From: Cyanophora paradoxa CCMP329
Lineage: Eukaryota > Plantae > Glaucophyta
NCBI GenBank assembly: GCA_004431415.1
Contig: QPMI01000115.1
Location: forward strand, 1-64,000
Length of the DNA: 64,000 nucleotides
Direction: 5' to 3'
Shown here: positions 10,470 to 48,165 of the stretch, in pieces
Numbering within the stretch: the stretch's first letter is position 1
How the letters are laid out: each line of letters opens with the position of its first letter
Position numbers and translations under genes: made by a program
The notes under the pieces: generated by a model
Database searches by the model: none
What the model saw: only the letters and a program-made list of their open reading frames with translations
What the model was told of the DNA's origin: nothing

Positions 10470-11495
10470 TCTTCTCACAACATTGCTACGGTTTGGTTTG
10501 ATTCCTTCTTTCTTCAACCTTTGATTAACTGTATTCGTTTTCTTTACTCTTGTTATTCGTTTTTGCGATGGAATCTTAATGACTTCATTAACTTTCACTT
10601 TCTGTAATTCTTGCTTCTTGAAGCGTCGCTTAACTTCCTTCTCGTCCCCATCCATATCTTCCAACACTTTGAATCTATTCCCATCAGACCTTCCAACTTT
10701 ATAAACCTTTTGACTAAACCTTGCACCTTCCTTTTCAAATGCACTCTTCTTACCTTCTAACACTCGAACAGTATCACCTGGTTTAACATCGACTCTCTCA
10801 TTTCCCTTCACGTTATTATTGTGAACAGTATCCCGAAGGTAAATATATAGTTGTTTATCTTCGTTAGAATACACTGTATTTGGTGAATCATTCTTCAAGG
10901 CACTATGGGGTGAATTGTTATAAATGGCGAGAACTTCGGTCACTAAATCAATCCACTTACTTGTCCCATTCGATGTCATTGCCTTCCGTAAATACTGCTT
11001 GAAAGTCCTGGTGAATCGATCGATAATTCCGAGTTTATCACCAACTGTAATGTGTTCATCCTTAGCGACATCGGTATACAATCGCACCCCATGTTCTCCA
11101 CACCAATTGCGATACATTGCGCTGGAAAACTCATTATCTCCCGATAGAGCAGCAACTTTACCTGCATCCTGTTTGAATCGATTTAGAATACTTGGGATGT
11201 TTTCGTTCGTTTTGAAAGGATACACGAATGCCTTTCTGCTCAGAATATCAACAAAACTAATCATCTTAAAAATACCATTGTTTGCAGTTTGAAATCCTTT
11301 GAAATACATAATATCTACTTGGAATGAACGTGGTTTCGCAACAATCCTTAGGAATGATTTAGGCTTTTTCGGTTTCTTGAATATCTGATGCACTTCTGAG
11401 TTTAAAAAGCGTTTTTTCAATTCTTCCTCATCAAAGTTTACTTTATCATTAATCAATTTCTGGCGATACTTCTTGTAAGATAACACATTATCCAT
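10443..11495 (-). CDS. rve-family (retroviral-like/Polinton-type) integrase of PLV-1
   Basis: FQVDIMYF, VDILSRKAFVYP, LSGDNEF, IIDRFTRTFKQYL, WIDLV...YNNSPHSALK..SP motifs followed by an SH3-like GDTVRV region. Confidence 0.9.
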   Translation of the reverse strand: MDNVLSYKKYRQKLINDKVNFDEEELKKRFLNSEVHQIFKKPKKPKSFLRIVAKPRSFQVDIMYFKGFQTANNGIFKMISFVDILSRKAFVYPFKTNENIPSILNRFKQDAGKVAALSGDNEFSSAMYRNWCGEHGVRLYTDVAKDEHITVGDKLGIIDRFTRTFKQYLRKAMTSNGTSKWIDLVTEVLAIYNNSPHSALKNDSPNTVYSNEDKQLYIYLRDTVHNNNVKGNERVDVKPGDTVRVLEGKKSAFEKEGARFSQKVYKVGRSDGNRFKVLEDMDGDEKEVKRRFKKQELQKVKVNEVIKIPSQKRITRVKKTNTVNQRLKKEGIKPNRSNVVRRKYNLRSRA

Positions 11496-14483
11496 TATTG
11501 AGCAGCGCAGTTACACCTAATATGTGACAGGAAACAATTTTTGGTAGTATGGGGCAACGCATTATTGATTCGATCAATAGAAATTACGTTCAGATCGAAG
11601 TCCATACCACCATAACAACGAAGACAGTGACCATATTGCTTGCCGTAGCGTTTCTTGCACCAATCCCAATTGACATACTCCTTCTCGTCATACGGTCTGT
11701 TTGCCTTCTTGTCTTGCTCCTTGTACTGCTCAATTCTCTCGCTGAACTTCTTCATGTTCACAACGTGTTCTGCCCACTCATACCCATCATGGTAAATCTT
11801 CACACGACTTAGCTCGGTAGTTCGGGTGATTGCTGTGTAGAACCATTCCGCAGAAACGAAGGGCGCACCCGCTTCATAGATCACCACATTACCGCTCTTG
11901 CAATCTATTGTATCACCCTGAATCACGTGACAGGTATAAGCGTAAGGAAGTGAGAAATATCTCATTGCAGGTGGGTCTAATGTGATCACTTCCTTTGTAG
12001 CGATATCTTCGATGACGAACTCTTTGTCGTCATATGCCTTGATGGTGTACGTAAATCCATTGTGAATAGTCACACCATTTTTCACGATCCTTTGCTTTGC
12101 GACAATCTCCACACCTTTCGCAAAAATTGGGACATCTTCCCCGTAGTTCAATTTATGCAATTGCAGGTTGACTTCCGCAGCCTTGCGATTGGTGTAAACG
12201 ATCGCCCTGTCATCTTTCTCCAAAGTATCGACCGTTTCAAACCTGTACTTTTTAATGACATCGGGAACACTCAAACGATTTTCGAAGAGATCCTTTTTGA
12301 TTTCCTCGACAGTGTCGCGGTCTTCTTGGGTCTTGTGACGCTTATTAACCTTCAATACTAACTCGTTCTTGAACAGGAGACGCAGAATGTATGAGTAGTA
12401 TTCTTTTTGGTCAACCGTCATATCCTGGATGGGCGGATTTTGGTGTGGGTCACCTGTAGCGATGTAGACCTTATCCGGGAACAGCACTTCCATAATGTAT
12501 GCAAGCGCCGCCAATTCTGGAACTGTGAATTGACAGATTTCATCGATTACGATGCAATCGTACTCAACCAATCCGGAAGCATTACCACCCACGATCTCGT
12601 CCATGTTCGAATCGTCCACTTTCAGATGCAGAGCATCGTAGATGGTCTTAACATTTGCAAGACCATGTTGTAGCTTCATGTCGCGAATCCTCTTATTTGT
12701 CGGAACAATGAACAGGGGATTTTGGAAACGCTTACCAAACTGAACACCAATGTAGGTCTTTCCCACTCCTGGAACGACACCCAATATAATCCATCGCTTC
12801 TGAGCAGCAAGAGTTTCGCAAATTGCCGTGGTGTTATACTCATCAACTACCGAGTAAATAATGTGATTCGACTTCTCTAATTTCACGAAGTTCTCCTCGC
12901 GCTCCAATTTCCCGTAGTGAATGCGCTTGAAATTGAACTCCTTATTGTTCCCGATATACTTCTTTGTGAAATTGGGGCAATGCTTGACGCTGAATTCACC
13001 AATGTTGTCGTATCTGTGACGGTCGAAACTCACAAGAGGGATCGGATCACAAGAGGTCGTGTAGACACAATCAGTATTAACAGAGACTGGATTAAGTCCT
13101 TTCTTACTGAGTTCGATGCACTTCTCGTATAGATTCATTCTCATAAGAGAATACATGAGATTGTGAAACGGTAGGAACCCATCAGTAAGATACTTTTCTG
13201 CTACTTGATTCACATAGTAGATGCACGGTTCTGTGATTTCTTCCTCTGCGATGACGTAACAGGTTGGGTCATACGATGCTGGATCTTTACCAAACACGTA
13301 TGGTTTTACCTCTCCGCCATATTGCTTTTGGAATTCAATCGCATCGTCGCGCTTGTTAAAGATCGTGGTCTTTACTTTGTGGTTCTTCTGTTTTCCTATT
13401 TGCCCAATATTAGCAACAAGCATCTGCTTCTTGTCTGTTGGGTCAAGGTCACTTTCCATGATTTGCTTAATCACGTCGCCTGCATAGTTTGGAACCAATT
13501 TATATGGTCGAAGAACCCCCTTAATGGTTATGTCTTCTTTCAGATCCTCGTAGTATTTTTTGAGAACCATGCCTGGGATGACATTGTACCGTGAATCGAT
13601 AAGCATGCGCTTATAACGGTCGTAGATGTTCAGTTCGTATTTCGTTCCATCCGCATTTTTCATCGATTTGAAATACTTGGATTTCAACTGAACATAGTAG
13701 AAGTTGTAGTTTTCGATTTCCTCAGCAGAAGTGATCGCGGTCTTCTGGAAATTGTCGAATTTACTAATGACTGGGACGAATTCAATCTGTTTTGCGATAA
13801 TTGCAGGATAGGCTTTGCACATGTCGTGTTCGTAGATATTCTCGCTCCACCCAATCTCATCAATGGTCTCCTTCTCCAAATCAAAGAACCCACGAAGGGC
13901 AGTCTGTGAACCAATGCGGAACGCTGTTGAAGTTTGGTCATTGTACGTACTCTTGTTAGCATTGTTAACAAGACTCAGATACATTTTCAGATTGAGCCGC
14001 TCGAATTTCTCACGATATTCAGCGTCCTTGAATTTCACCGCATAAGCAGTCTCCACATCCGTATCTGAACCGGGTGGGGTAACCGTGATGCTCTTCTCAC
14101 CGTATGTGAAATGAATGTGTGTGATCTTCCGCATCGGGGAGAATCCCGCGTGAACCTGGTAGTTAACATCAACAATGAACTCTTTCAGAAGATCGTCCAA
14201 GAACCCACTGTAACAGATTGAAATTTTACTCTGAATCTTCATCTCCTCCGAATTGATAATCTTCACGATATCCTCAGGAGTTGCCGCAAACTCACGATGT
14301 TTTCTTTGCTTGATAATCTTGAATCGCGACCCCACCGTAAGATTCGTGTCAGAGTTTGACTTGGATCCATTGAAAGAGTGAGTGAGAGATTTGAGATTCT
14401 CGTTCAGAAGGTATAAGTGACCATTTTCGATCTTCACATAGGCAACCGATGGCGTGAGGTGGGTATTCCTCGTTTTCGGTTTG
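11495..14483 (-). CDS. C-terminal part of the PLV-1 replicase: degenerate PolB-like domain + SF1 (RecD/Pif1-like) helicase + Cys/His nuclease-like tail; interrupted by PLV-2
   Basis: PolB-like motifs HDMCKAYP, KQMLVANIGQIG, VNTDC; SF1 motifs GVVPGVGKT, IVIDEICQ, GDPHQNPP, YTCHVIQGDT, FYTAITR; C-terminal CLRC...SIDRINNALPH...NC...CN. The frame continues to the PLV-2 TSD. Confidence 0.88.
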
Positions 14484-14489
14484 AAAGTG

Positions 14490-15043
14490 ACACATAAATA
14501 AAAACAAATTTAAATCCCTCGCTCTATCGCTCAATTCGCGCTTCGCGCTCATTTCGCTCTGTCGCTCAGGATTTAAATTTGTTTTTATTTATGTGTAAAT
14601 TAATCGAAAATATTTAAAAAATAAATCAAAATTTTTAATAAAATCAATTAAATTTAAATAAATTCGATTAAATTAATTGGTATAATATCAATTAAATTAT
14701 GATTTTATGAAATTTATATAAATTTTTGATTATGATTTTATGAAATTTATATAAATTTTTATATAAATCCCAACGTGTAACAGGTGAATCCCAAGGTGTA
14801 ACGGGTGTAACAGGTAAATCCCAAAGTTTTGGATTTTTCACCTCCTAGGAGCGAAGTTTGGGATTTACCTGTTACACCTGTTACACATGACGATATTCAA
14901 TAATACATGTTATATTTCTTCAAAATCTCAGTGTGATTAACTCGGAAATCGCGCTGCTATCTGCTTCTCCGCTTTCTCCAACCCTGAAAAGATCTCTGTT
15001 ATTCTCTCATCTATCAATTTAGATATTACGGAGGTCTTACTTT
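14490..15043 (+). repeat. PLV-2 left TIR (internally shortened relative to the right TIR)
   Basis: 14490-14730 is the reverse complement of 46828-47068; about 14766-15043 is the reverse complement of 45702-45979. Confidence 0.9.
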
Positions 15044-15335
15044 GCGCTTCTGTTCCGCAAGTGAATACATCAATCGCTAACATTCCTTGATCCGAATAAC
15101 AATGAGCGGTTAAATGGCTCTCATCAAGAAGTAATACCATAGCAAAACCGGGTGGCGAAACACCACCATCGAAAATCTCGCAATGCTTGTGAACTACTCG
15201 GATACCTTGCTCTTGAATAATAGATTGAAAAAATTGCATTAACCACTTCGTTGTGGTGTCTATGTTGTCCAATCCCACCATCAATGGATGATTGAACTTG
15301 TAATCTAACATAACATGGAAACCGCGATGATTCAT
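14937..15335 (-). CDS. speD: S-adenosylmethionine decarboxylase family proenzyme (prokaryotic SpeD/SpeH type)
   Basis: GFHVMLD, PPGFAMVLLLDESHLTAHCY (ES autocleavage site), AIDVFTCG; 132 aa, typical of short prokaryotic-type AdoMetDC. Confidence 0.85.
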   Translation of the reverse strand: MNHRGFHVMLDYKFNHPLMVGLDNIDTTTKWLMQFFQSIIQEQGIRVVHKHCEIFDGGVSPPGFAMVLLLDESHLTAHCYSDQGMLAIDVFTCGTEAQSKTSVISKLIDERITEIFSGLEKAEKQIAARFPS

Positions 15336-15555
15336 TTATGAATTATATAGAAAAATTAAAAACGAAATTGGTAGGATGCGAACGATCTTAGCGAAAGTAT
15401 TTCCGTATGAGTTGGTCGATATCATAATGCTCCATTATCATAAGACATGTCCGAATTGCTTTGATACTTGCATTATTACAAGAAACAAGACTGGTAAAGT
15501 CTTAATTTCTTTATCCCGTCTCCATATGTAATTTGTTTTTCTTTATCTATGGTAA

Positions 15556-16369
15556 ATGAAGACTCACTTTTACCATAAGTATGTCGGTAATAAATACAAT
15601 GAAATGGATACAATCAATCCTTTTATCGATTTAGAAGGCATAAATAAAATAATAGAACCATTTTGTGGTTCAGGTGCATTTAGTTTCTATCTTTGGGAAA
15701 AGCATAAAGAACGTTTTGATTACTTTATGAATGATAACGACGAAACACATATACTTTTTTGAATACAATGAAAGACCCTAACAGTAAAGTAAAACTTTTA
15801 GATAGTCTTCAACAGTTCGAAGCAGTAAGCAATATAGAAGAGCATAAAGAAGTTTATAAGAGTTTTCTACAACATGATCGTAAAGATGTAATGGATTACT
15901 TAGCCCATCATTTCTATCTTCTTAAAAACAGCGTTTTAAATGTTAAAACCCTCCGTGATTTCAAAAAACGGAACGTGAAGTTGAGTGCATATACAACTCT
16001 TAAAAAGAAGATACCTTACGATGATTTCCTACAAGATGTTAACTTATCTCTTGGGATTATCTGGATATTGTGTTGAAATACAAAGATGATGAGGATGCAT
16101 TCATATTTCTTGATCCTCCATACGTTAATAGCAATAATGACTTTTACGAAAATGTAGAATCCGATTTGGAAAAATTCTTTTTGGATTTAGAAGATCTATT
16201 GAAGACCGCGAAATGCAAAGTTATGATGGTTGTTAATGATGCTTTATTAATGAAATTGCTATTTAAACCCTTTATTCGACATACATATGGTAAAGTGTAT
16301 GGTATATCAAAAAAGAAAAGGAAACATCTCATTATGACTAACTACGAAATCAATCAAAATACAACATAA
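15556..16369 (+). CDS. D12-class (Dam-like) N6-adenine DNA methyltransferase, ~271 aa, split by two single-base frameshifts
   Basis: YVGNK, IEPFCGSGA, MND and FIFLDPPY motifs over three ORFs; adding one T near 15760 and one G near 16055 restores one frame. Confidence 0.85.
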
Positions 16370-16622
16370 TCGGTTTCTCTTCTATAACGATTCCCCATGT
16401 AGTCTTTTTTCTGTATGCATGTGAGTGTTTCTTGGAACACTGTCGGCAACCCGATCCCTTAATGTGATTAAATCCGTAGGTTTGGAACGTCTTATTACAT
16501 TGTAAACATCTAACGGATATCTTCTCTTGTGCTTTCTTATAGACAGTCTCACTGTAATCGAATTTAGCATCACCATGAATCATAATCGCAGATTCAATAA
16601 ATCTTTTAGTTTTTTCATCCAT
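16350..16622 (-). CDS. Small Zn-ribbon protein resembling the repeat unit of viral homing/restriction-endonuclease-associated domains
   Basis: FIESA..IHG..FDYSETVY...KISVRCLQC..F....NHIKGSGCRQC; no nuclease domain visible. Confidence 0.6.
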   Translation of the reverse strand: MDEKTKRFIESAIMIHGDAKFDYSETVYKKAQEKISVRCLQCNKTFQTYGFNHIKGSGCRQCSKKHSHAYRKKTTWGIVIEEKPIMLYFD

Positions 16623-16645
16623 TCCTCTATATATACCTTAGAAAT

Positions 16646-17474
16646 CTATGGTGCAGTATCTGACCCAAAAATGGGGAAGTAGCGATTTGTGCCGTAATAT
16701 TCTGCATATGTATTCTGTTTTGCAATAGCATCGGTTCTCTCAGCATAGAGAATGCATTTGTAGATACCAAACCTGGTGGCTCTCACCAAGAACTGGTAAT
16801 CTTCAAGACCGAAATTCACTCCATGATAAGCAATTCCGAAATTGTCATATGGCGTGATCACAACTGCAATATTTGGGGTTCCACCCTCTACTTGACAGAC
16901 AGCATAAACATCTGGTGGGATATCGACAACCACCTTGTAGTGGTCACCAATCTCAACAAGAGAATCAACTACTGATGTCTGCTCATTCACAACAATTGGG
17001 AAGATCTTGATAATATATGGTGCATTCATACTGGGACATAGGTGCGAATTCTGGTGTTGGGATCAATGGGATTGGGTTGATCATTTACGAAAAGAGGCGC
17101 ACCAACAGCTCCACCAATCCGAAGACCATCACCAATATATGCTCCCCCGTTTTGCAGTTAATAGCTCCCGACCGAGATTCAAAAGAATAAGTAGAAAGAG
17201 GATCACCATAACTGTCTGGGTCTCCATAGTGGGCAGAAAAGTTTGCATTTGTGACAAGGAGTTTCGTTGTCTTAACTATACCATTATTTTTATCACACCT
17301 GAGTTCTTGCAATCTCAGTTTGTGGGTGGAACCAAATGTATTCATTGTGGGTTGCACTTCTGTGGATTGGAGACCTTCTACATCATCAAAGGTAGCATGC
17401 TGCAAAACGTGATTCGCAGGTGCTGCTAATGAGAGTTGGGGTGTAATAATTCGTTCTGGTATTGGGGCAGCCAT
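16646..17474 (-). CDS. Hypothetical (probably virion) protein, ~276 aa, paralog of the adjacent 17498-18352 gene; two homopolymer frameshifts
   Basis: ELRCDKNNGIVKTTKLLVTNANF vs ELRADKNSGVVKTTRLLVTNANF; +1 G near 17146 and +1 C near 17034 join ORFs 17085-17474 and 16646-17029 through GAYIGDG...RIRTYVP, colinear with the paralog. Confidence 0.7.
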
Positions 17475-17497
17475 TTTACATTAAAGTGATATATAAT

Positions 17498-18352
17498 TTA
17501 TGGGGTTGGGTCATCGATTATATCTGGTTCCGAATAAAACCCTGTTGTGAAGATATCTGCAACGTTTACCCCTCGAAGTGCCGAAACAGCTGCTATATCT
17601 GTCCTCAGTCCCATAATCATAGTATTGTAAACTCCAACCTCAGTTACAAACAAATCATAGGTAAATGTCAAATTGTTATAAACACAATATCCTCGACCGA
17701 AATGGTTTGATGCTTGAACAAAGAATAGGTAATTATGACCTGTTTGATTGTTGTTTGCTCTGCACATAGATAGCATTGCTGTGGGAAGCGGAATATTTCT
17801 TCTTACTCGATCAGTTCCTGTTATAATAACCAATTCCGAATTTTCAAGAGTGACAGAGGAAGCAACATAGAAATGTAGAAAAGGTTGCTGTGCAACTGGT
17901 GTATAGAAACGTATTCGTTGGGGGTCTTCAACATTCTGTTCAAGAGTATCTGGGACATCATTATACGAAATCGATGAAGAAAGTTGACCGGATACACGAC
18001 AACCACCGCCAATAAACGCTCCACCTGAACGAATTGTAGCAGCGGCAGAATTCTTATCGAAATCGAGGGCTTTTAAATCCACACTGTATGCATCAGGACC
18101 TCCATTTGTCGGTTGAAAGAAGTTTGCATTTGTTACAAGTAGTCGTGTGGTTTTAACTACACCCGAATTCTTATCGGCTCGGAGTTCTTTTACACGAATC
18201 ATCGAATTTTTATCGAAAGAGTTACCATTAGAATTGGGTCTCTCTGTGGATTCTAAACCGCGGACTTCATCATTAACTTCATGTTGTCGAAAGTGCATAG
18301 CTGGCGATCCAAGCGAATAAATGGGCAGTTGAACTCGATTGTATTCACCCAT
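17498..18352 (-). CDS. Hypothetical (probably virion) protein, ~284 aa
   Basis: Long ORF directly after the fibre gene; likely start MGEYNRV at 18352; paralogous to 16646-17474. Confidence 0.7.
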   Translation of the reverse strand: MGEYNRVQLPIYSLGSPAMHFRQHEVNDEVRGLESTERPNSNGNSFDKNSMIRVKELRADKNSGVVKTTRLLVTNANFFQPTNGGPDAYSVDLKALDFDKNSAAATIRSGGAFIGGGCRVSGQLSSSISYNDVPDTLEQNVEDPQRIRFYTPVAQQPFLHFYVASSVTLENSELVIITGTDRVRRNIPLPTAMLSMCRANNNQTGHNYLFFVQASNHFGRGYCVYNNLTFTYDLFVTEVGVYNTMIMGLRTDIAAVSALRGVNVADIFTTGFYSEPDIIDDPTP

Positions 18353-18392
18353 TGCTTCTTTTACTAAGAAGGATAGAAAAATAAACGACATT

Positions 18393-21300
18393 CTATGCTA
18401 TCATCTTCCCTGTTGCTATATAAGTCATTTGATAGTGGAAAAGTCCAATGCTTTCATTGTATTCTCTATTTGCCGAAATTGTTGCATGAATAGTAAATGT
18501 TGTTGTTGTGGAACTTGTGACACCATATACCAATACATATGAACCACCATTATACCCATCTCTTAAATTGAGAACGACTGCTGGGGCTTCTGCAAACGCT
18601 TTTGGGAATGTGACAACTTGTGGAAATCCCCAATGACCCGGACCTGTGATTGCTAAGGATTTTGAAAAACTCCCTGTCTGTATATACTGGTCTTTATTGA
18701 CCTGTTGTTCTGAGACAAGTTTCGCAATCTTACCATTGTCTTTTTCATCCATCGCATAGTATGCTCTTGCGTAAGCATTGCCACGACATAATAGTGTTTT
18801 ATCGTATATGTTCGCGGAATTGTGGAAGAACCACTGTTCGTAGAATAAAGGAGAGTCTGGTTGGTAAATTTGACCGGATCCCACATACATGGTATTATTT
18901 GCTGTGATCGTATTTGCTACAAATGGGTCTAAGGTTGGGAAATCTGTGATTTCCGATTTCGTGTGAGTATGGGCGAAATCTGTTATATTTGCCTTTGTGT
19001 GAGTATGTGCAAAATCGGTGATATCTGATTTAGTGTGAGAGTGAGGTCCGACAGTTGTGGAAGCTGTTGGTTTCCCGTAAATGTTATCCCAATGCAAGAA
19101 GCCACTGTGTGATGATACAGCAGGATTTTTACTCCAACCAACAGTAATCGGACCTGGAAGACAAATTCTTCCTATTTGTCCATGAACACCAACTTTAACA
19201 AGTCCTTCACAATTTATTCCAACAAACTGTTTATATTGAGAAGGCTGAATAGAAGGAGCATAGGCATTTACTCTTGAATAAACATAAGTATTTGTCGATG
19301 AATCAATTCCCACTACATCAAAGTATCTACTGTTATACAGACAGGTATAATAGATATAACATGATTTCATTCCTGCTGGGACAGTCCAATACATCTTACA
19401 GCTACTACAATCAAAATCACCATCAACCCATGTGTTCGCCCAAGTGTCTGTATTTGTCAATGGTGACCCGAAGAAACCTCTCCAATCACCTGTGCGGTCT
19501 GTGGAAATACCACTTGTAGCATCGAAATTTGTGGGTGCTGTATATGTTGGTTTATTAATTAAATCATCATAATTTCCGCTTGTCGCAACTGCTGCTAAGG
19601 TGGGTCTATCCGTAATATGGCTCCATAAATGTAAATGTGGTGAAGGTGTGAATGTTACAGGCTTATCTGTTATACTATTCCATGTGTGTGTGTGGTCAAA
19701 ATCTGAAATCTCATCTTTTGTGTGAACGTGTGCAAAATCGGGTATCTCTAATCGGGAATGTGTGTGGGCAAAATCTGTTATTTGTGATTTTGTGTGAGTG
19801 TGTGTGGGTATCTCCAAATTGCTAAGTGTTAATCTGTCTTTGCCGATAATATTCAGAATTTCCCGAGTTAAGATTGGTTGAGTATTGGGGAATCCATACA
19901 TTTGTTGGATGTAATACCTTACTTGTTGTTTTTCTGCTGTGGTTAATGCTCTGTTGAATACAATAATCTCAGCAATGCTTCCCGCAAATATTGTTCCAAA
20001 TCCAAAATCGTTTATAGTGGAATCAGGTAAATAATTATTAATTCCTGTGAGAGTTCCCACATCGACACCATTTAGCCCAACTGTGTAGCTTGTAGAAGTT
20101 ATTGTTTGGTCTGAGTAATACCATTTATTTACCAAAGAGGGAACTGTGACAGCAATTGGAGGTTGTGTTACACCATTTATAGCGAAAGTAGTTGTCCCTA
20201 ATGTTGTTGAATTATTTGCTCCATAGTAGGCAAATCGCGTTGGTGATGTTGTTTTTAGCACTCTCAAATGTGTATGAGAAGCACCTGTTTGTGTTAAATG
20301 ATATCTTCCAATATAGAAGAATGTCAAACCTTGTGACCAATCAATTGTTCTTGTCATCGTTGAGTTTGCTGAGAAGTTCCCTGAATCGCTTGTTAAAGTC
20401 ATCTGATTATTTATAGCAATATTGGATGAGTAGTAGGGACTTCCTGTGGAACTGACAGTTATAGATGGAACGATTGAGGAGACCCTATTGTAAAGAATTT
20501 TTGATGCTGCATTTTGACCGTGAACCCCTGATGCCTTCCAAGCAAAAATACAATTGGGAATGTTAGAAGCTGGATCAAAATTGGAAGTGATTCGATAAAA
20601 ATTTTCACTATAAGATTCTAAATAGCTTCCGGTTCCCATTTGAATTTTCCCTCCAACTGTTAGGTTGCTTGTCACCACCAAGTTGCTGGTAATGGTTCCA
20701 CCATTGAGTGGTAGATAATTAGATAATGCTACATTAAGTTCCTGTTCAGTCACATATTCTTCAAGAATTGCTGCAAGTTCTGTATCGTCTACATAATTTT
20801 TGCTTTCAAGGTAATCATCTGTGACAACACCTGAAAGGGTCTCATTGTGTAAATTTTTTGCCGCCATTCTCTGATTGACTTCTAAGGCGCCACCTGCTAA
20901 TGTTTTGATCCACGCCATCTCACATTTCCCGAAATCATCTTTTGGTTGTCCCACAAGTGGTGCGTAATTGAATTTCGAGCGACTAAATATTATTTTCGGT
21001 CTTGATCCATCGGTTGCGCTTACATCTGTAACGTTTACTTGTAAGATGGCGTCTTTATCATCATAACTCACTGGATCTAATGGAAGTGGAGGTAAACCTG
21101 CTGTTAATGGGATATCTTCATTATAATAACTTGTCAAAAACAGACCTGGTTTAGTATCTATAACTCCCACCCCACCTGCTGAAACCATTTGAGATCTTGA
21201 AGGTTGTTTAATGTATAATTCGCCATCCATTGTGGTGCCTGCATCTATTCCTTTTCTGTGCAAATAGTATTCACTTAATTGTAATCTTTCAGGAATGGTG

Positions 21301-36899: not shown

Positions 36900-36959
36900 G
36901 GCGTTGTAGATCTTCTTAATAAAGATAGATAAAAATAACGAAATCTTACTGATAATGGT

Positions 36960-38026
36960 TTAGAGATTAATGCGGCGAATTCCGTCCTTATCGACAATAA
37001 TGAACGAATGCATGAGAGCGCGAACGTTAACAGTAATTGTGCGATCAGCAGGAAGATACAGAGTGAGGAACGATGAAGACAAGTTCGTAAGGTCAACATA
37101 TCCAGATTGGGCAATGTTGCGAATCGCCTTCTCACCATCAACACAGAATGGAAGACCAGTAAGGACATAACGGTTTGCTTCCTTGTCCATGTTTGAGCAT
37201 TTGAAGGCATCGGCGATGAGTTCCGCACCTTTAAGTAGCGGGATCGGCTCCGTCGAATAAAGACGCTGTCCGTTGATCTCACATGTCATCGTGATATCCT
37301 TCGCATTCGCAAGCGTTTTAAGGACGCTGTGAGAACCATTCGAGGTATCGACACCATCAGCATCACGAACAGAGACAAGAAGAGCATAAACCAGACCAGA
37401 GATTTGGCTAAGATTGATTCGGTTGGGTTGAGTGTTACCTTTCGCAGCAACACCAATAGCATCGACGAAACCGATATCGAGAGCAGGAATAGCCATCCCC
37501 GTGGTCTTAACCTTCTCAATAACAGTTGCAAACAGTTCATCTGAAACGTTGATAGCATGCATGTAGAGACGAGGAGACTTAATGGAGATGTAATGGGTCA
37601 TTGGTGGAACAGTTCCAGCAACTTCGAACCCAGTAATACCGCCAGTGGTGATGTTTTGACCGACATTAGCAAGAGTTACATCAGCAGCGCTTCCGAGACC
37701 GTCATTTGCGGTTTGATCCGCAGCGGTTGTCACAACCGGAAGAGCGCGACCACCATAAGAAGTTTCAAGGTAACCCTTGTTAGCTTCCTTAAACCACACA
37801 GTGATAACGGCTTCACCCGAGAGAGCGCCAAGTGGTAGGTAGTGGTTCAACCACGGCACCGGAATCTCAACGAAGAAAGCGCCACCTTTACGGTTGGTTC
37901 CGTGAGCGGGAATACCATGGAGCATTCCCATAGAGCGCTTCTTTTTTGCCAGTTGATCTTCTGAATAGTAGACCAGTGGGAAAATCGCCAGGAAATCAGA
38001 CGGCACGTGGTAGGTATACGAGCCAT
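36960..38026 (-). pseudogene. 5'-truncated duplicate of the PLV-2 MCP gene
   Basis: Matches 41613-42679; lacks the N-terminal ~110 codons. Confidence 0.85.
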
Positions 38027-39117
38027 CTCTGAGCGAATTGCACAGCACGTTGAAGATAAGCCGGGCAAACCCTGCAACTCAAACACAGATAGATTCGTTT
38101 CCCGGTCTCATCCATCTCCCAGATTCCGTAAGCCTCGTTGAACTTGAACCACGTCTTGTTTGAATACTTGTAGCTGTCTCGCAGAACAAGAAAAGCAACC
38201 TGGGCAACATCATAATGTCCGCCATCAGATCCAATCGACCGATCAATTAGCTTTTCAATCTGAACATCGGTATCAGCTTGAACGCGAACCGTCATAACTC
38301 GCTTCTTGCAATTGGTGCTATAACTCGAAACAATATACTTGTCTTTCTCGTTCCCTTGAAGTATATACCAATTGTTGGAGTCATGGCTTCCCTTGCAGCA
38401 GGGACAAATCAGCCCTTTGTTCTCAGCAGTGAAACTGTAACCCTTCTCGGTCTCATTAATGATTGTGGGTAAGATGAAACCGAATTCTTCAAGTTTCCGG
38501 AGAATGTGTTTCTGCAAATCCTCTTCAATGCTCCTATCAATAGAAGAGTGTCCGCCTTTCGGAAAAAGGTAGTTTTCAATCATCCACTTTTGGAGTTCAG
38601 CACTCGGTTCGATCAACTCACAGCCTTCCGCCCATGGTTCTCTGATCCAAGTTTTACCGGGGCTTGGGGAAACGTTAATCAAACCAGCCGTTCCAGTGGA
38701 TGCAACTGTCTTACAGTCAATCTTAGGATAACCTTTGAAAGCACCCGCTTTATCCCAGAGCTTAACAGTATCGAAGTCAGCAGGACGAGAGAAGTAAACA
38801 TGATATCCTTTTTTGGTTTTAGCAAGAGGATTGACACCACCGAAATCATCGGGATATTCCTCCTCGAATTTGGCGAAATCCTCCTCTTGGTCGAAGTCGA
38901 TAACCACGATGTTGCGAGCGAGAATGCCCCAAGCAGTATACTTACCGGATTTCAGGGCTTCATCGAATTTATCCCAAGTCCACGATCCGTCTTTATGGGC
39001 GAAGAGGGGTTTTTTGGTATCGGGATCGACGGGGATTACGATATTCTCAGACCGGACATCGTCTTCACGAAGCCAATCAACAAGGCGTTTCAGGGATTTC
39101 TTGGCGGCAGCGTTCAT
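38027..39117 (-). pseudogene. 3'-truncated duplicate of the primase-helicase gene (primase part only)
   Basis: Matches 33373-34463; ends out of frame in MCP sequence. Confidence 0.85.
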
Positions 39118-40769
39118 CTCGATAATCGGGGGTGTCTTATCTATGATGGAGAAAAGAGTTTCTCCGGATTCCTATCATTTTTTGGCGGCTAACCTTTAAG
39201 TGGTTGATATCTCTTCAATTACCAAAAACGGCAATCGGGAGATGGTAACGGATCTATCGAAGCATATCGATAGACCGCTCGAAAAATGAGTAATTGGGTT
39301 CAGCGGTCAAATGGGGATTTCCCTTAATACTTTCGTGGACGTCCCCGCGACTTGTTTTCAATTCCCTCCCGCTCCTTACGACGATAATATGAAGCGAGCG
39401 ATTGCGCCTTCTTATACTCCGATAAACCGGGTCTTCGTTGTAGAGCGTTCGCTTCCTGAGAGCATCTCTCATCTTGTAATTGGCGCGGGTCTCCTCTTCT
39501 TCTTCGCCGAATTCGATAACACTAATCATGTCTTCGGTTATATGAATTACAGTCGCCATGTTCCACTTTATATATAGTTGAGAAAATCTTTTACCACTCT
39601 GTATTATGCGTTACGTCTTTAAGTAGTTTATGGTGTCATTTTTTGGTGACCAAAGCCAGTTGGTGTCTACGTTCTTCAATTGCAGATTTAACGGCGTAAA
39701 TCTGTCGTTTCGATAGTATGATGGCGTAGATCTCTTCGAGCATTCGATACCATAACCAAAGATATTATTTATGATCGTTTTGCGCAAACGATCGGCGACG
39801 GACAGTCTCTGTTTCTGTAACGGTGACTGTCTCAGTTGTTATCGAATCTTGTGATTGCCTTCGCCCTCCATCGCTTCCACCATCTGAGAAATCCATTTCG
39901 AATTTCGTATCGCAGCAGTCATTGTGACAATCGGTTACGCAATGCATCTCAAACATCTCAATGATCTTTTTCAGAAACTCCATTGATTCCCTCTTTAAAC
40001 AATATATAATTAAAGCCAAACTCTCCGCTTGTATGCTGTGGGAGCTACACCTTTGTCGACTTCCGCTTTGGTAGCACCAGGTTCAACAGTTCCCTTTTGG
40101 GTCTTTGTCTTCAACTCATCTACCGCTTGTTCATCAATTTGAGTCTCCTTCTTACCAATAAACTGCTTATCGGGAAGACCGGTAATACCCATTCGGAATA
40201 CCTCTTTGCGCAGCATTTCCTTGATTTTCGATCGCTCCTTCTTCTCAGTTACATACTGTTCAAGAGCGCTTGATTTTGCTTCCAGATCCTTTAATTTAGC
40301 GGTCATCTCATCCCATTGCGCTTTCGGGATTCGGTGGATGTTTTGAGTTGGCGCAACCTTGTAAGTAACTTCACCAGCCATCGATTGAATTACCTTGTCG
40401 GATTCTTTGGAAACACCTTCACCCTTGCGAGCGAGGGAAAGATCTTTGAGACCGAGTTCACGATCATCGGCAGCACCGATAATCCGACGGGCGCCTTCAC
40501 CGACCGCCTTCATCTTCGAGACTTCCGGCGAGATGTTCAATTGCTCACTTTGGGATGTTTGCGGCGCTTTATCACCGGGCGCTTCTTCATAAGCGGCATT
40601 TAAGGGGTCTTCTTCCTGTTGCGATGGTTTCACTTCGCTCATTCCGTTGAATTTCATCGGTGTAGTGTTGAGAGATCCATGACTTTCACCGCCGGAATAT
40701 GACATAGCACCAGCGGGAACACCTCTACGTTTCGGCGGCATTGTATATTTATAACATACAGAGATAATT

Positions 40770-41552
40770 TTACAATCCCCTCTTATATCGCATCAACTTA
40801 TTCGTGTGAACAGCGCTTTTAATCTCTTTCGGCGCTTCCTCCTTCTCAGGCGGTTTTAATTCATCTTCTTTCTTTTTTGGTTTGCGATGGAACCGCGGGA
40901 AATCAAAATCACCAACTAATTCCGCTTTATCAACATAATACCCTACGTTATATTTGAATGACGTATAAACGATAAATTGGTATGAGTGGACATACTCTTC
41001 AAACATCTTATAGAAATCTTCTTTACGGGGAAACGTAGAATACTCTTCGGCGAAAGCTTCTAATTCTTTCTGATTACTTGCACAAACCATAATTACGATA
41101 TCACAATTACAGCGAATCACACTTGCAACCTTGCGCAGTTTTTGCGAAATGCAGACGAGGGAACAGTTCACATGTCTTGATCTTACGAAAAGCATTCCCA
41201 CTGTTTTGTCTCGTGTTAAATCCAATTGGTCATTTTCAACCATATCTTCTAAAATAATCAGCATATGGTTTAGTTCTTCTCCTCTTTCCTTCTTTTCTTC
41301 ACGATCTTTAAGAACCTTAGAAATGTATTTTGCATCCCAGGCACCCAATTGAACAGTAGCCGCTTTATCCCAGTAATGCGTGAAACTTGTAGCGGAGATA
41401 ATAAGCGTTGTATCAATCTTTTTCGCATCATGAAGCTGTTTCAAATAGTATTTTACCGCCTCAGTTTTCCCGCACGCCGACTTCCCAAGTATCAATAATC
41501 GGAACGGTGGCTCAATCATTTCAGCGGCATTAAACTCTTCTAAATCCACCAT
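40770..41552 (-). CDS. A32/FtsK-like packaging ATPase of PLV-2 (copy 2)
   Basis: Protein identical to 36117-36899. Confidence 0.92.
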   Translation of the reverse strand: MVDLEEFNAAEMIEPPFRLLILGKSACGKTEAVKYYLKQLHDAKKIDTTLIISATSFTHYWDKAATVQLGAWDAKYISKVLKDREEKKERGEELNHMLIILEDMVENDQLDLTRDKTVGMLFVRSRHVNCSLVCISQKLRKVASVIRCNCDIVIMVCASNQKELEAFAEEYSTFPRKEDFYKMFEEYVHSYQFIVYTSFKYNVGYYVDKAELVGDFDFPRFHRKPKKKEDELKPPEKEEAPKEIKSAVHTNKLMRYKRGL

Positions 41553-41612
41553 GGCGTTGTAGATCTTCTTAATAAAGATAGATAAAAATAACGAAATCTT
41601 ACTGATAATGGT

Positions 41613-43010
41613 TTAGAGATTAATGCGGCGAATTCCGTCCTTATCGACAATAATGAACGAATGCATGAGAGCGCGAACGTTAACAGTAATTGTGCGATCA
41701 GCAGGAAGATACAGAGTGAGGAACGATGAAGACAAGTTCGTAAGGTCAACATATCCAGATTGGGCAATGTTGCGAATCGCCTTCTCACCATCAACACAGA
41801 ATGGAAGACCAGTAAGGACATAACGGTTTGCTTCCTTGTCCATGTTTGAGCATTTGAAGGCATCGGCGATGAGTTCCGCACCTTTAAGTAGCGGGATCGG
41901 CTCCGTCGAATAAAGACGCTGTCCGTTGATCTCACATGTCATCGTGATATCCTTCGCATTCGCAAGCGTTTTAAGGACGCTGTGAGAACCATTCGAGGTA
42001 TCGACACCATCAGCATCACGAACAGAGACAAGAAGAGCATAAACCAGACCAGAGATTTGGCTAAGATTGATTCGGTTGGGTTGAGTGTTACCTTTCGCAG
42101 CAACACCAATAGCATCGACGAAACCGATATCGAGAGCAGGAATAGCCATCCCCGTGGTCTTAACCTTCTCAATAACAGTTGCAAACAGTTCATCTGAAAC
42201 GTTGATAGCATGCATGTAGAGACGAGGAGACTTAATGGAGATGTAATGGGTCATTGGTGGAACAGTTCCAGCAACTTCGAACCCAGTAATACCGCCAGTG
42301 GTGATGTTTTGACCGACATTAGCAAGAGTTACATCAGCAGCGCTTCCGAGACCGTCATTTGCGGTTTGATCCGCAGCGGTTGTCACAACCGGAAGAGCGC
42401 GACCACCATAAGAAGTTTCAAGGTAACCCTTGTTAGCTTCCTTAAACCACACAGTGATAACGGCTTCACCCGAGAGAGCGCCAAGTGGTAGGTAGTGGTT
42501 CAACCACGGCACCGGAATCTCAACGAAGAAAGCGCCACCTTTACGGTTGGTTCCGTGAGCGGGAATACCATGGAGCATTCCCATAGAGCGCTTCTTTTTT
42601 GCCAGTTGATCTTCTGAATAGTAGACCAGTGGGAAAATCGCCAGGAAATCAGACGGCACGTGGTAGGTATACGAGCCATACGAGAATTCAAGACGCTCTA
42701 CAAGCGCACCTACGGGGCGGGTGTAACCATTGCGCACCAGGTCGGTATCGCCTTCGAAAGCGGTTAGTTCGGGAAGATCGAAAGCGAGTTCGATTTTACC
42801 AACAAAGTTGTAGCGGGGAAGTTTGAAAGAAACGCGTTGACCTACGTTGTTGTCATAGGTTGTCGATGGACTAACAGTTACGAGAACGGGTTTCGTCTTC
42901 GATTCGAGACCAAGCATAAGCGAGTTATCGAGGAAGAACGCTTTGGCTTCCTCGGGCGTTGTTAGCGCCTCTTTCAGAGAAAGACGTTGAAGGGTCGAGG
43001 TAACATCCAT
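41613..43010 (-). CDS. Major capsid protein (double jelly-roll) of PLV-2
   Basis: 465 aa beta-rich protein between penton and ATPase; VSFKLPR..FVGKIELAFDLPEL, LVERLEFSYG, FVEIPVPW...YLPLGAL....ITVWF patterns typical of double jelly-roll MCPs. Confidence 0.85.
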   Translation of the reverse strand: MDVTSTLQRLSLKEALTTPEEAKAFFLDNSLMLGLESKTKPVLVTVSPSTTYDNNVGQRVSFKLPRYNFVGKIELAFDLPELTAFEGDTDLVRNGYTRPVGALVERLEFSYGSYTYHVPSDFLAIFPLVYYSEDQLAKKKRSMGMLHGIPAHGTNRKGGAFFVEIPVPWLNHYLPLGALSGEAVITVWFKEANKGYLETSYGGRALPVVTTAADQTANDGLGSAADVTLANVGQNITTGGITGFEVAGTVPPMTHYISIKSPRLYMHAINVSDELFATVIEKVKTTGMAIPALDIGFVDAIGVAAKGNTQPNRINLSQISGLVYALLVSVRDADGVDTSNGSHSVLKTLANAKDITMTCEINGQRLYSTEPIPLLKGAELIADAFKCSNMDKEANRYVLTGLPFCVDGEKAIRNIAQSGYVDLTNLSSSFLTLYLPADRTITVNVRALMHSFIIVDKDGIRRINL

Positions 43011-43064: not shown

Positions 43065-44069
43065 TTACGCGAATCCCGCAATATTTGGATAGAAGGGGTG
43101 GGTTTCTCTCATTCTCATTTTGAAATACTCATAAATCGGATCGCCGGCAGGTTCATCACCATAGCGGATCTCGAATGTCAGATGCACAGGTTGCCCCTCG
43201 AAATCAATTAATTCATTTTGAGCATTCACAACATCTACCGATAATTGCGATAGTGATAGTTTCTTATTATAATATTTATACAGCGGATTTGCTTCCGTCG
43301 AATTGTAAACAACGTGTTCCGCAAAGTCTTTATCTTGAACCGTGAGTTTATGGAAGTATCCAGTAAGGAGACCATCGGCACATTGGACGAGGTCACCCAG
43401 TTCTTTTACTCTCACGAAAAAGACATTATCTTTACAGGTTTCAGTTGGGAATGTCGAGATAATACCATTTACATTTGCACCTGTAAAAACGGAGCTTGTA
43501 TCTGTTCCATAGGTCTGTGATTTAATAAACTTGTTTCCCCAGCGTCCAGCATCCAAACCCAAGATTCGAGCGTGTCGTAGCGCTTTTTCGATTGCAGAAA
43601 CAGAAGGATCTTTTGCATATGAGAAGCATATATAGAACTCCACAGGAGCATAAAAGATAACTTTTTTTTGGGCTACATCCCAACCACAGCGAATTGCAGA
43701 AGGAGGCGAGAGATTCTCAAAACGGTTATTGATTCGGGCAACGAGTTGTTGATGAGTATTGATTGGGGTTTTTAGACCTGCACCAGGTCGAATAGAACGC
43801 CAACTATCATATAGAATCTCAGGAGCATTTGCACCGGTGGATGTGGATTTTTGGCTGAAATTGATAATAAAAGCATCCTCAACTGTTGCATCACCAGGTT
43901 CTGTCTCACCGCTAATGAGTGGGATGGAGTTATAGAATTCAGCGGAGACAAGGCGAACCGCTCTTACATTCTCATACGTCTTTGGGAGATCCGCAACAAA
44001 TCGTGATGTTGGAGCATCCAGATTAGGTAGCGTTTTGAAGGAAGACACTTCAACGTATTCCACAGGCAT
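43065..44069 (-). CDS. Minor capsid (penton) protein 1 of PLV-2
   Basis: FVADLPKTYENVRAVRLVSAEFYNS N-terminus and LSQLSVDVVNAQNELIDFEGQPVHLTFEI C-terminus, single jelly-roll pattern. Confidence 0.8.
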   Translation of the reverse strand: MPVEYVEVSSFKTLPNLDAPTSRFVADLPKTYENVRAVRLVSAEFYNSIPLISGETEPGDATVEDAFIINFSQKSTSTGANAPEILYDSWRSIRPGAGLKTPINTHQQLVARINNRFENLSPPSAIRCGWDVAQKKVIFYAPVEFYICFSYAKDPSVSAIEKALRHARILGLDAGRWGNKFIKSQTYGTDTSSVFTGANVNGIISTFPTETCKDNVFFVRVKELGDLVQCADGLLTGYFHKLTVQDKDFAEHVVYNSTEANPLYKYYNKKLSLSQLSVDVVNAQNELIDFEGQPVHLTFEIRYGDEPAGDPIYEYFKMRMRETHPFYPNIAGFA

Positions 44070-44097: not shown

Positions 44098-45000
44098 ATG
44101 ATTCGGCTTGTCAATGTCGATAGTAGAGATCGATTAGATGGACAGAAAGAAAATGCTTACAAGGTCTCACTAACCACACCAATTACCAGACCGCGACAGT
44201 GTCGTATCTTGTATGCAGAGATTCCCAACAGCATTTATAATTCGATTGGAACCGATTATATTATAGTTCGTTATAACATTGGTGGTTTCATCCTTAACCA
44301 GCAAGTATTTCCGTTACCGAGTGGTTACATCAACCAAGGACACTTTGGAGTTACTCAACCATATAATTACGGTTTAAACTACGAAGTTCTTGAAAATACA
44401 TTCTTTAAGATATACTACAACCCGACAACATACAAGTTAGAATTTTATAGCAGCGTTCCATTCGAAATAGCAGCGTCAAACAATAGAATCGCCAAACTAC
44501 TTGGTCTTGGATCAACATTATTGGTAAGCCAGCAACACAATTTAGAAGATAACAGGTCTGTATTCGCTCCTGAGAATTACTTATCTTATGCAGGAAGACC
44601 AATTACACCTGATCACCCACAATGGGGAATAACGTTTGAAGGTGTAGATCCAGTGCCGTTGCAACACAAAGCAACAAGTCCAAAGATGGCGGATATGAAC
44701 GCTGAGCAATACTTGTATATGCACATCAAAGAACTCTCTTCTTTTGCATCCAACCACAATATAGTCCCGAAATCGCAACCGCAGAATCAAGGCGCGATCT
44801 TGCGATTACAATTGAGTCAGGACATCGGGAAGTATGTTTACCATAGCGGAGAGCATGGTGAATACATAAAAATAACAGACAAAAACCTTGTTATTCGTGA
44901 ATTAACAGTTGAATTTCGTGATTATTTTGGTGATCTTGTAGATATGAATGGTATCGATAATTCGTTTCAGTTGGAGTTTGTAGCTATTGGAAACGATTAG
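44098..45000 (+). CDS. Minor capsid (penton) protein 2 of PLV-2
   Basis: VNVDSRDR...AEIPNS N-terminus; IRELTVEFRDYFGDLVDMNGIDNSFQLEF C-terminus. Confidence 0.82.
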   Translation: MIRLVNVDSRDRLDGQKENAYKVSLTTPITRPRQCRILYAEIPNSIYNSIGTDYIIVRYNIGGFILNQQVFPLPSGYINQGHFGVTQPYNYGLNYEVLENTFFKIYYNPTTYKLEFYSSVPFEIAASNNRIAKLLGLGSTLLVSQQHNLEDNRSVFAPENYLSYAGRPITPDHPQWGITFEGVDPVPLQHKATSPKMADMNAEQYLYMHIKELSSFASNHNIVPKSQPQNQGAILRLQLSQDIGKYVYHSGEHGEYIKITDKNLVIRELTVEFRDYFGDLVDMNGIDNSFQLEFVAIGND

Positions 45001-45701: not shown

Positions 45702-47068
45702 AAAGTAAGACCTCCGTAATATCTAAATTGATAGATGAGAGAATAACAGAGATCTTTTCAGGGTTGGAGAAAGCGGAGAAGCAGATAGCAGCGCGATTTC
45801 CGAGTTAATCACACTGAGATTTTGAAGAAATATAACATGTATTATTGAATATCGTCATGTGTAACAGGTGTAACAGGTAAATCCCAAACTTCGCTCCTAG
45901 GAGGTGAAAAATCCAAAACTTTGGGATTTACCTGTTACACCCGTTACACCTTGGGATTCACCTGTTACACGTTGGGATTCATCCGTTACACCTTGGGATT
46001 CACCTGTTACACCTTGGGATTCATCCGTTACACCTTGGGATTCATCCGTTACACCTTGGGATTCACCCGTTACACGTTGGGATTCATCCGTTACACCTTG
46101 GGATTCACCTGTTACACATTGATTATCGATTGATTAATTGGACGTGTTACACTTGAAACACAATTTTGATACAGTAAAAAACAGAATCCAATCTCATCGA
46201 TTGTTTAATTGGACATAATGCAACTCTGGGGTCATTTTTGATACAGTAAAAATCGAACCGCAATCTCATCGATTGTTTAATTGGACGTAATGCAACTATG
46301 GGGTCATTTTTGATACAGTAAAAATCGAACCGCAATCTCATCGATTGTTTAATTGGACATAATGCAGTAACCATCCCTTCCAACAAAATACGCCGCAATC
46401 TCATCGATTGTTTAATTGGACATAATGCAGTAACGAGTGAATTATTTTCATCCGATATTTCATCGATTGTTTAATTGGACATAATGCAGTAACGAGTGAA
46501 TTATTTTCATCCGATATTTCATCGATTGTTTAATTGGACATAATGCAGTAACCATCCCTTCCAACAAAATACGCCGCAATCTCAACGATTGTTTAATTGG
46601 ACGTAATGCAACTCTGTGTGAATTTTTGCGTTTTACGATAGAATGGGCGGTGGACTACTTCAATCGTGATTATATCACAAAAATTATGTTCCTTTAATCG
46701 AGATTATATCGATTTTGCATAAAATACAAATTAATCGCGTTTATATCAATCGCAAAATACGTATTTTTCATTTAAATACAAATTAATCGCGTTTGTATCA
46801 TTAAATCAATCGAGAAATACGTAATTTATCAAAAATTTATATAAATTTCATAAAATCATAATTTAATTGATATTATACCAATTAATTTAATCGAATTTAT
46901 TTAAATTTAATTGATTTTATTAAAAATTTTGATTTATTTTTTAAATATTTTCGATTAATTTACACATAAATAAAAACAAATTTAAATCCTGAGCGACAGA
47001 GCGAAATGAGCGCGAAGCGCGAATTGAGCGATAGAGCGAGGGATTTAAATTTGTTTTTATTTATGTGT
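45702..47068 (-). repeat. PLV-2 right TIR (1367 bp) with a 21-bp tandem array (about 45921-46118) and a repeat-spacer array (about 46190-46612)
   Basis: TTGGGATTCA(T/C)C(C/T)GTTACAC(C/G) about nine times; core CGATTGTTTAATTGGAC(A/G)TAATGCA seven times; both ends match the left TIR. Confidence 0.9.
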
Positions 47069-48165
47069 AAAGTGAGTTCAGGTATCTCAGTCTTGTCGTC
47101 TTTGTCAATAGTAACCATCCCAATGCGGTAAGGTGACAGAACCTTTTCCACAATTTCCTCAAATGTAAAGCCCCAATCATCACCTTCTACTGGGTCACGT
47201 CCACGAATCATTTTGAATATACCGTTGTGGCTCCAATCAACCGATTTATACTTGCCTTTGGAATTGGCTTTCTGGAACGCTTGGGCGAAGTGCATAACAA
47301 GAACATCAGGAACGCAGCGACCCACTTTGAAGTTGTCACCGCGTACAAAGAGTTCCCCCAATGTCTTTGCTTGTGGGTTGGTCTCAGTTCGCAGATACTT
47401 GGAGATGATCATTGGGGCATGTTGCGAATCCCGTAGTGCTTGCTGTTGTCTCGGTACATACGCTTGATTGTCTGTGGTAATGATTCGCTCGAATGTGACA
47501 ATATCCCCGTAAATATCATTTTGAACTTTAACGAAGAATCGGAAATCACGATTGCCCACATTCGCTTGTGCGATCGCTAACATGAACTCTTGGATATTCT
47601 CAACACCCATCAGAGCTGGGAAGGTATTGAACGTGTTTTTGATTTTGTCAAGTGACTTCAACAGATCCTCTTTCGAACACTGAATTGCGAGAGGTTGGTT
47701 AGTGCTTGTCTTCTTCATCTCGAAGTAGAACATACCGCCATCCTCGACCACATTGGAATTAGCGGGCAGGTTTGGGATCTTATCAGGTGTGATGTCCTTG
47801 TAGACTCGGACATGCAGAACTACCATATTTCCGGGTGAGTTCTGGATGTACTCGCGAAGGTTATCCATCATTTCTTGGAAGGGATCCCGACGCTTGCGCT
47901 TCTCACGCTTCTCAATGTTCTTAGCCGTCCTCTCCGCCTTTGCCTCCTTCTTCTGTTGCTTACGCTCAAACCGCTGGTAGAGCGAACGATTGATTTGTCT
48001 AATGATATCATCCAACTTATCCTCTCGTGGTCGCTGGTAAGTTACCACATCGAGAAACTCTTCGAACTTCTCACGGTTTATCTTGTCGTCTACGAACGCT
48101 TGCATAGACTTCGCCACAATCTCTTGCTTCTTCTTTCTCAGCCTCAAATTCGACGCTCGCGGCAT
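47069..48165 (-). CDS. N-terminal part of the PLV-1 replicase gene (interrupted by PLV-2)
   Basis: Reads MPRASNLRLR...KTEIPELT and, after removing 14490-47068 plus one TSD copy, continues in frame as FKPKTRNTHLTPSVAYVKIENGHLY. Confidence 0.9.

Follow-up and report, generated by a model that had tools for sequence, protein, structure and literature searches.

Results

One polinton-like virus lies within a gene of another

We analysed a 64,000-nucleotide (nt) stretch of DNA from the glaucophyte Cyanophora paradoxa CCMP329 (GenBank assembly GCA_004431415.1, contig QPMI01000115.1, positions 1 to 64,000; hereafter the window), in which one polinton-like virus (PLV) is integrated within the replicase gene of another. 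Together they form an AT-rich island with a GC content of 41–42% within DNA of 52–60% GC, and the island contains two nested pairs of perfect terminal inverted repeats. The outer element, PLV-1, spans 10117-53579 (GC 42%, against 60% and 52% in its flanks) and ends in repeats of 353 nt that are 100% identical (10117-10469 on the left, 53227-53579 on the right), bordered by a 5-bp target duplication (10112-10116, forward strand, and 53580-53584). The inner element, PLV-2, occupies 14490-47068, which amounts to 32,579 bp, or 27,925 bp without an internal duplication described below, at a GC content of 41%. It has perfect terminal inverted repeats of its own (241 nt; 14490-14730 and 46828-47068) and, further inward, a second repeat block of 281 nt (14763-15043 and 45702-45982). 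Identical hexamers adjoin it on both sides (14484-14489, forward strand, and 47069-47074), constituting a 6-bp target duplication, and the probability of such an identity arising by chance at two fixed positions is ~3e-4. After subtraction of the insert and one target copy, the outer element measures 10,878 bp. The outer target duplication lies in host DNA and the inner one within a gene of the outer element, from which the order of integration follows: the nested integration is real, and the inner element arrived after the outer one.

The interrupted gene reads on the reverse strand, with its N-terminal part at 47069-48165 and its C-terminal part at 11495-14483. When the two halves were translated separately, the former gave 365 codons plus 2 nt and the latter 1 nt plus 996 codons, both of them open. 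Because the codon phases of the halves are complementary, the figure of 4086 nt and 1361 amino acids (aa) for the fused reading frame is correct. An earlier note on this DNA had claimed that 14490-47068 carries its own terminal repeats and a 6-bp target duplication, and that its removal restores a single reading frame of this size; the 241-nt perfect repeats and the matching hexamers bear out the one claim, and the verified lengths and phase the other.

The split gene encodes a replicase with a polymerase palm and a helicase

A full-library search with the C-terminal half (clusters at 50% identity) returned 980 relatives at E <= 0.001. The best 150 of these 980 are mostly 1200–1450 aa long and align with the C-terminal half only from residue ~320–400 onward, which leaves space for the 365-aa N-terminal half. 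We built a profile from 59 near-full-length homologues, hand-picked from the best 150 of 980 and with the window's own row removed. The N-terminal half matched profile positions 1-333 and the C-terminal half positions 338-1286, so that the matches are adjacent and colinear, and the N-terminal half scored 107 bits on the N-terminal profile, compared with 7.3 for the best of 100 shuffles. A two-gene or naturally split replicase was considered and rejected in view of the uninterrupted copies described below, the full-length homologues and the colinear profile matches. Word-index homologue searches gave one match for the C-terminal half and none for the N-terminal half among longer proteins, and no match to the replicase was found in phage records or PDB sequences.

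A structure model of the C-terminal half (pLDDT 83; a single-sequence fold, at pLDDT 31, was not usable) resembled Pif1/RecD/Dda helicases (E 5e-15) and the phi29 polymerase (E 7e-9) in a Foldseek search. Polymerase motifs A, B and C are present, motif C in the xTD form, and the motif A Asp, the motif B Lys/Gly and the motif C Asp are invariant in 60/60 aligned replicase sequences. From its N-terminal end, the C-terminal half thus appears to comprise the likely His side of a vOTU domain, the polymerase palm, a helicase of superfamily 1B (SF1B) and a Cys/His-rich, nuclease-like end that is likely of the HNH type. By its motifs and predicted structure, the split gene is a replicase of the type that combines a protein-primed family B polymerase (pPolB) palm with an SF1 helicase. 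This combination, pPolB-S1H, is the 'Tlr1-like helicase' of PLVs and transpovirons in passages of PMC5499653. The domain order TP-vOTU-PALM-S1H and a polymerase predicted to be active are described in sections of 10.1101/2024.03.18.585575, and 'replicase' is therefore a fair name. A large replicase family with invariant motif A and C aspartates also fits the newer view of active palms set out in the same sections.

One Cys in the N-terminal half and one His in the C-terminal half are each conserved in 59/59 homologues, and the insert lies between them. The insert therefore probably cuts a vOTU protease between its catalytic Cys and His, where the vOTU label comes from the published architecture (passages of 10.1101/2024.03.18.585575) and was assigned by domain position; the invariant Cys is the one attributed to this likely domain. 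With the domain probably severed in this manner, and the polymerase-helicase part left without a start, the outer copy is now likely unable to make its own replicase.

Short reads contain the left junction and uninterrupted copies

Twenty sequencing runs from 19 studies, all of one organism, contain 67–72% of the words of 10600-16000, and we analysed four of them (X1, X2, X18 and X20). None of the runs listed is an RNA run, which carries no information about expression. Gene content, together with ~68 Mb of contigs in the two smaller runs, suggests a unicellular eukaryote as host. In two of the four, X1 and X2, a 59-nt contig spans the left junction and equals 14461-14519 with 0 mismatches. 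Its depth was 29.7 in X1 (flank 22.4) and 68.8 in X2 (flank 75), approximately that of a single copy. The contig carries 29 and 30 letters on its two sides, the bar for bridging being 31 letters; in a graph of 31-letter words, a junction found in just one copy would be expected to take this shape. For X18 and X20 no junction was present among the contigs listed, whose depths add up to the total; contigs can demonstrate that a sequence is present but not that it is missing.

All four runs also contain contigs that diverge from the window at 14490 and continue with letters matching the N-terminal half (27/30), as well as a more diverged type that departs at 14482 and matches the N-terminal half at 23/30. 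Since these continuations match the N-terminal half, uninterrupted replicase copies exist; the search for undisturbed PLV-1 copies that the earlier note had proposed thus yielded gene copies without the insert in 4/4 runs. The empty host site of the outer element was found at flank depth in X18 (one of the four runs; compared by eye). Judged by depth, the outer family has ~5–12 copies and the inner family ~16–22 (by its end motif), figures that are rough, as depth does not equal copy number and the lower bound of 5 is a modelling assumption.

Among the differences listed between the window and the run contigs, 25 of 27 in the C-terminal half of the replicase gene and 7 of 7 in the outer integrase fall on third codon positions. 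As nearly all of them do, the outer copy, to judge by this sequence pattern, probably remained under selection until a short time ago, and the insertion is likely young.

One other inner-type end was seen, and in 4/4 runs its flank is GC-rich and host-like. This end aligns with the window for 10 letters past the end of the repeat (14480-14519, 4 mismatches over ~40 nt), an extension that hints, if very weakly, at a preferred target site.

The two elements are distant relatives

The inner and outer capsid proteins are 23% identical (E 1e-14), the integrases 24% (E 2e-18) and the ATPases 28%, and a self-comparison of the window revealed no DNA similarity between the two elements. With core proteins only 23–28% identical and no DNA similarity in that self-comparison, homologous recombination between the elements was rejected and the nest is attributed to integration. 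The claim that each element has a separate integrase, major capsid protein, ATPase and penton is upheld by domain matches and by the homology between the elements, with the penton labels likely. The replication modules differ, the outer one being of the pPolB-S1H type and the inner one consisting of a family B polymerase and a primase-D5 helicase. Over their first 70 residues, the outer replicase (47955-48165) and the inner polymerase (31500-31698) are weakly alike, with 27% identity (E 0.001, in a set of 17 proteins), which hints at a shared origin of these segments. No relatives of either capsid were found in viral contigs.

Further genes and repeats of the outer element

In addition to the replicase gene, the outer element contains a gene for an rve-type integrase (10443-11495, reverse strand; 350 aa; Pfam rve at E 0.0017, under the Pfam cut-off), whose stop codon falls within the terminal repeat, and a likely penton gene (49780-50682, reverse strand), the label of which we infer. 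On the forward strand follow the major capsid protein (50735-51961; 408 aa), which is homologous to the inner capsid and gave no match in a word-index homologue search, and an A32-type ATPase that is spread over two frames (52097-52848; Pfam Pox_A32 at E 2e-6). The element comprises six main genes and a 97-aa open reading frame at 48406-48696 and, at 10.9 kb, is small for a PLV. No maturation protease was found in either element by Pfam and PHROG scans of the open reading frames, which remote homologues could escape. The left host flank contains a 3.6-kb tandem duplication (1975-9202; 99.2%) and 150-nt satellites, so that the outer element itself is located in repetitive DNA.

Genes, repeats and frame breaks of the inner element

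The leftmost genes of the inner element encode an S-adenosylmethionine decarboxylase (14937-15335, reverse strand; Pfam AdoMet_dc at E 1e-12) and a D12-class adenine DNA methyltransferase, pieces of which lie in different frames (15556-16366, forward strand). They are followed by a gene for a fibre-like protein of 1546 aa that combines LamG domains with phage tail-like repeats and contains an internal duplication of 701 bp (18393-23033, reverse strand), and one for a patatin-like lipase that also has an F5/8 type C domain (24663-26099, forward strand). Across 16461-18506, the summed contig depth was ~70–370 times the flank depth in 4/4 runs, far above that of the rest of the inner element, perhaps owing to a repeat common to many elements or to an effect of summing overlaps. 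The rve-type integrase (26833-28233, reverse strand; 466 aa) matched Pfam rve at E 4e-4, under the cut-off, and a PHROG transposase at E 7e-12.

Next on the reverse strand come a family B DNA polymerase that is likely protein-primed and includes an endonuclease VII-like domain (28419-31698, in two frames; phrog_1907 at E 1e-6; motifs A–C identified by eye) and a primase with a D5-type helicase (32119-34463, in two frames; Pfam Prim-Pol, D5_N and DUF5906). The A32-type packaging ATPase (40770-41552; Pfam Pox_A32 at E 3.5e-12) has a second copy at 36117-36899, and the capsid gene (41613-43010, also on the reverse strand) reached a feature score of 0.98 to Capsid_N / Capsid_NCLDV clusters, with a recognition value under the tool's bar. 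Two likely minor capsid (penton) genes, 43065-44069 on the reverse and 44098-45000 on the forward strand, were assigned by their length and location and by resemblance to the outer gene, a resemblance that is weak for the former and has an E of 7e-11 for the latter; neither had a family match in the Pfam or PHROG scans.

The second ATPase copy belongs to a tandem duplication of 4654 bp (33372-38026 and 38026-42679), the copies of which differ by a single indel; the microhomology amounts to one base. Its breakpoints lie in the primase and capsid genes, so that the ATPase is doubled and partial primase and capsid genes meet at the joint; the duplication may be either real or misassembled. Frame breaks affect four genes, namely those for the inner polymerase, primase-helicase and methyltransferase and for the outer ATPase. 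Between the two 3.6-kb copies in the host flank there are 15 indels, every one of them in a short run of one or two letters, and single-base indels distinguish the run contigs from the window, one lying at a frame break of the methyltransferase gene. On these grounds the frame breaks are likely to be long-read consensus errors rather than signs of decay. Consensus errors of the same kind have been reported for endogenous mavirus-like elements (EMALEs) in passages of PMC8547959.

The left terminal repeat of the inner element (14490-15043) consists of a terminal hairpin with a 28-bp stem, an AT-rich part and a second hairpin at 14795-14886. Both ends (14490-14596 and 46959-47068) fold as hairpins with a perfect 28-bp stem, resembling the terminal palindromes of Halocafeteria elements, although the inner element also has a family B polymerase. 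The right terminal repeat (45702-47068) contains ~850 bp of tandem repeats missing from the left one, in arrays of 21-, 59- and 72-nt units at 45938-46610 that account for its greater length. A third, internal copy of the 92-nt terminal-repeat hairpin, 93.5% identical, is located between the polymerase and helicase genes (31959-32051) and is possibly an origin or a promoter. The inner terminal motif had no match in metagenome contigs.

Discussion

Comparison with known elements

The outer element resembles the Tlr1-like PLVs, with which it shares an rve integrase, a capsid gene, a likely penton gene, an A32 ATPase and a pPolB-S1H replicase of ~1.36k aa that has an invariant Cys/His pair, as well as the lack of a protease match (sections of PMC5499653 and 10.1101/2024.03.18.585575). 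Indeed, it combines the features by which such elements are recognized, namely the palm-SF1 helicase fusion, double jelly-roll capsid and ATPase genes, and an rve integrase together with repeats and a target duplication. It differs in being only 10.9 kb long, compared with the usual 14–40 kb for PLVs given in passages of PMC12220804, and in that the nearest homologues of its replicase are only ~30% identical. At the end of its replicase there is a likely HNH-type domain like that of PLVs, whereas Tlr1 has a GIY-YIG domain there. The inner element has in common with Polintons and with PLVs that encode both pPolB and rve a family B polymerase, the rve integrase, long repeats, a 6-bp duplication, capsid genes and the ATPase (sections of PMC5499653 and PMC12220804). 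Compared with Polintons, it adds the primase-D5 helicase, fibre, lipase, methyltransferase, S-adenosylmethionine decarboxylase and terminal hairpins; most Polintons have a maturation protease, whereas none was found for the inner element in the Pfam and PHROG scans.

Viral elements within viral elements are known. Sections of a preprint on Halocafeteria seosinensis report five PLVs and nine virophages embedded in other viral elements (10.64898/2026.07.28.741278). As here, complete viral elements lie within viral ones, and palindromes end the terminal repeats in some subtypes. The main-text sections of that account describe gene-level disruption for a Mutator-like element (MULE) transposon and contain no case of a PLV splitting a replicase; at the present locus, by comparison, one can see the gene that was hit, copies of it without the insert, and the host site of the outer element in its empty state. 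Retrotransposons within PLV and virophage genes have been reported from cryptophytes, Tyrannomonas and Cafeteria (for Cafeteria, passages of PMC8547959). Among these, Ngaro elements of Cafeteria insert into EMALEs, at times into the polymerase or primase-helicase gene of the endogenous virus. Ngaros, however, are retrotransposons of the tyrosine-recombinase type whose preference for EMALEs has been measured, according to the same passages, while the insert described here is itself a capsid-encoding virus. We found no account of a PLV inside the replicase gene of another PLV in the literature searched, which did not cover subscription journals and bioRxiv supplements. The locus is a clean new example of a known virus-in-virus arrangement.

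Origin of the nest

We favour the explanation that a multi-copy Polinton-type element landed in the replicase gene of a Tlr1-like PLV by means of its own integrase, without aiming at that gene, and would put the probability of this reading at roughly 0.72. The outer element would first have integrated into host DNA and the inner element then into the outer one, both through rve-type integrases. Landing within an AT-rich provirus would be cheap for the host, allowing the insertion to persist, perhaps with the help of a mild integrase bias for AT-rich provirus DNA; insertions in dispensable DNA may well persist more readily in general. The outer family would be unharmed overall, with several uninterrupted copies left. 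The replicase gene takes up 38% of the positions of the outer element and its six main genes 81%, and a strike on the replicase therefore says little. For mavirus and EMALEs, virophages with rve integrases, sections of 10.1101/068312 and PMC8547959 describe no sequence preference in integration. The earlier note had proposed that PLV-2 disabled a resident relative through its replicase. The disabling stands as likely, with the probable vOTU domain cut and the start lost, but the relative is a distant one (23–28% identity). Its further suggestions, aim at the replicase or antagonism between PLVs, are not supported here, considering the size of the gene, the distance between the elements, at least five uninterrupted outer copies as judged by depth, and the host-like flank of the other inner end.

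Several points weigh against an untargeted landing or the evidence for it. In a model of uniform insertion, the probability of finding any copy of the inner family within the outer family is only 0.4–4%, and within either family 1–22%; the model takes rough copy numbers from depth, assumes a genome of 68 Mb and leaves out other PLV families. The former figure leaves room for an insertion bias, and some enrichment of the inner family in PLVs is possible, although the window was chosen from ~250,000 for being nested. It represents a single event, with one other insertion site seen. As to the reads, the junction contig falls below the bridging bar, X1 is possibly the sample behind the window itself, and support is confined to the left junction, such that the right junction and the 32.6-kb continuity rest on the assembly. 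The third-position counts, moreover, come from the differences listed, which are 40 of 748 plus all 5 of a second set.

The low probability under uniform insertion would count in favour of an inner integrase that prefers other proviruses, through AT-rich DNA, chromatin or a tethering protein, with the element hiding there and disabling competitors. There is precedent, in that 91% of type 1 Ngaro retrotransposons are in EMALEs (passages of PMC8547959) and nests are frequent in Halocafeteria (sections of 10.64898/2026.07.28.741278), and the insertion does split a likely catalytic domain. Yet the event is a single one that was picked because it is nested, another inner-type end is flanked by GC-rich host-like DNA, and there is one junction against ~5–12 outer copies, most of them uninterrupted at the site. 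Furthermore, with 81% of the outer element coding, most strikes on it break some gene, and the Ngaro precedent relies on a different enzyme. We regard targeted nesting as unlikely, and as slightly more doubtful still an insertional warfare in which the larger family preferentially enters the proviruses of other PLV families as landing pads and knock-outs; with several outer copies uninterrupted, there would be little to gain from antagonism.

The same structure could also have arisen outside the chromosome, if the inner virus entered a free outer genome during co-infection and the 43.5-kb composite then integrated by way of the outer ends. Both elements look young, as their repeats are perfect, and an outer-only state of the locus was not seen in the runs examined, which do not resolve the matter either way. 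Such a composite, however, would contain no complete outer replicase gene and be 4.0 times as long as the outer element, and two successive chromosomal insertions require no added assumption; the extrachromosomal route strikes us as distinctly improbable. Lastly, an assembly chimera, whether of an outer and an inner copy or of two halves that stem from different outer copies and were joined around a single inner element, has to be weighed for a window with many homopolymer indels and two near-identical tandem duplications, in which both families are repeated and of which the read check reached only the left junction; comparable loci are known to misassemble (passages of PMC8547959 and PMC10120064). 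Against it stand the exact duplication of 6 bp, the codon phases that complement each other across the insert, the matching outer 5-bp duplication with its empty site in X18, and the exact left-junction contig in two runs from different studies, and we consider a chimera very improbable.

Being 4.0 times as long as the outer genome, the nested unit is unlikely to be packaged by the outer capsid. Precise excision, by which the earlier note would see PLV-1 restored, and the carriage of PLV-2 along with an excised PLV-1 gain no support from these data. Sections of the mavirus paper (10.1101/068312) leave 'excise or replicate' open as a model.

Implications

The locus presents one endogenous DNA virus breaking another, with the state before the event, in the form of uninterrupted copies and an empty outer site, available in public data, and it brings in two further PLV families, both divergent, of which the one with a 10.9-kb genome is unusually small. 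Existing data, in the form of at least 20 runs spread over 19 studies, can answer whether the inner family is targeted to other proviruses. Should enrichment of the inner family in other PLVs emerge, the rve integrases of Polinton-type viruses would be able to choose targets, unlike the findings for mavirus and EMALEs, and competition between proviruses would then shape the host's stock of possibly protective viruses.

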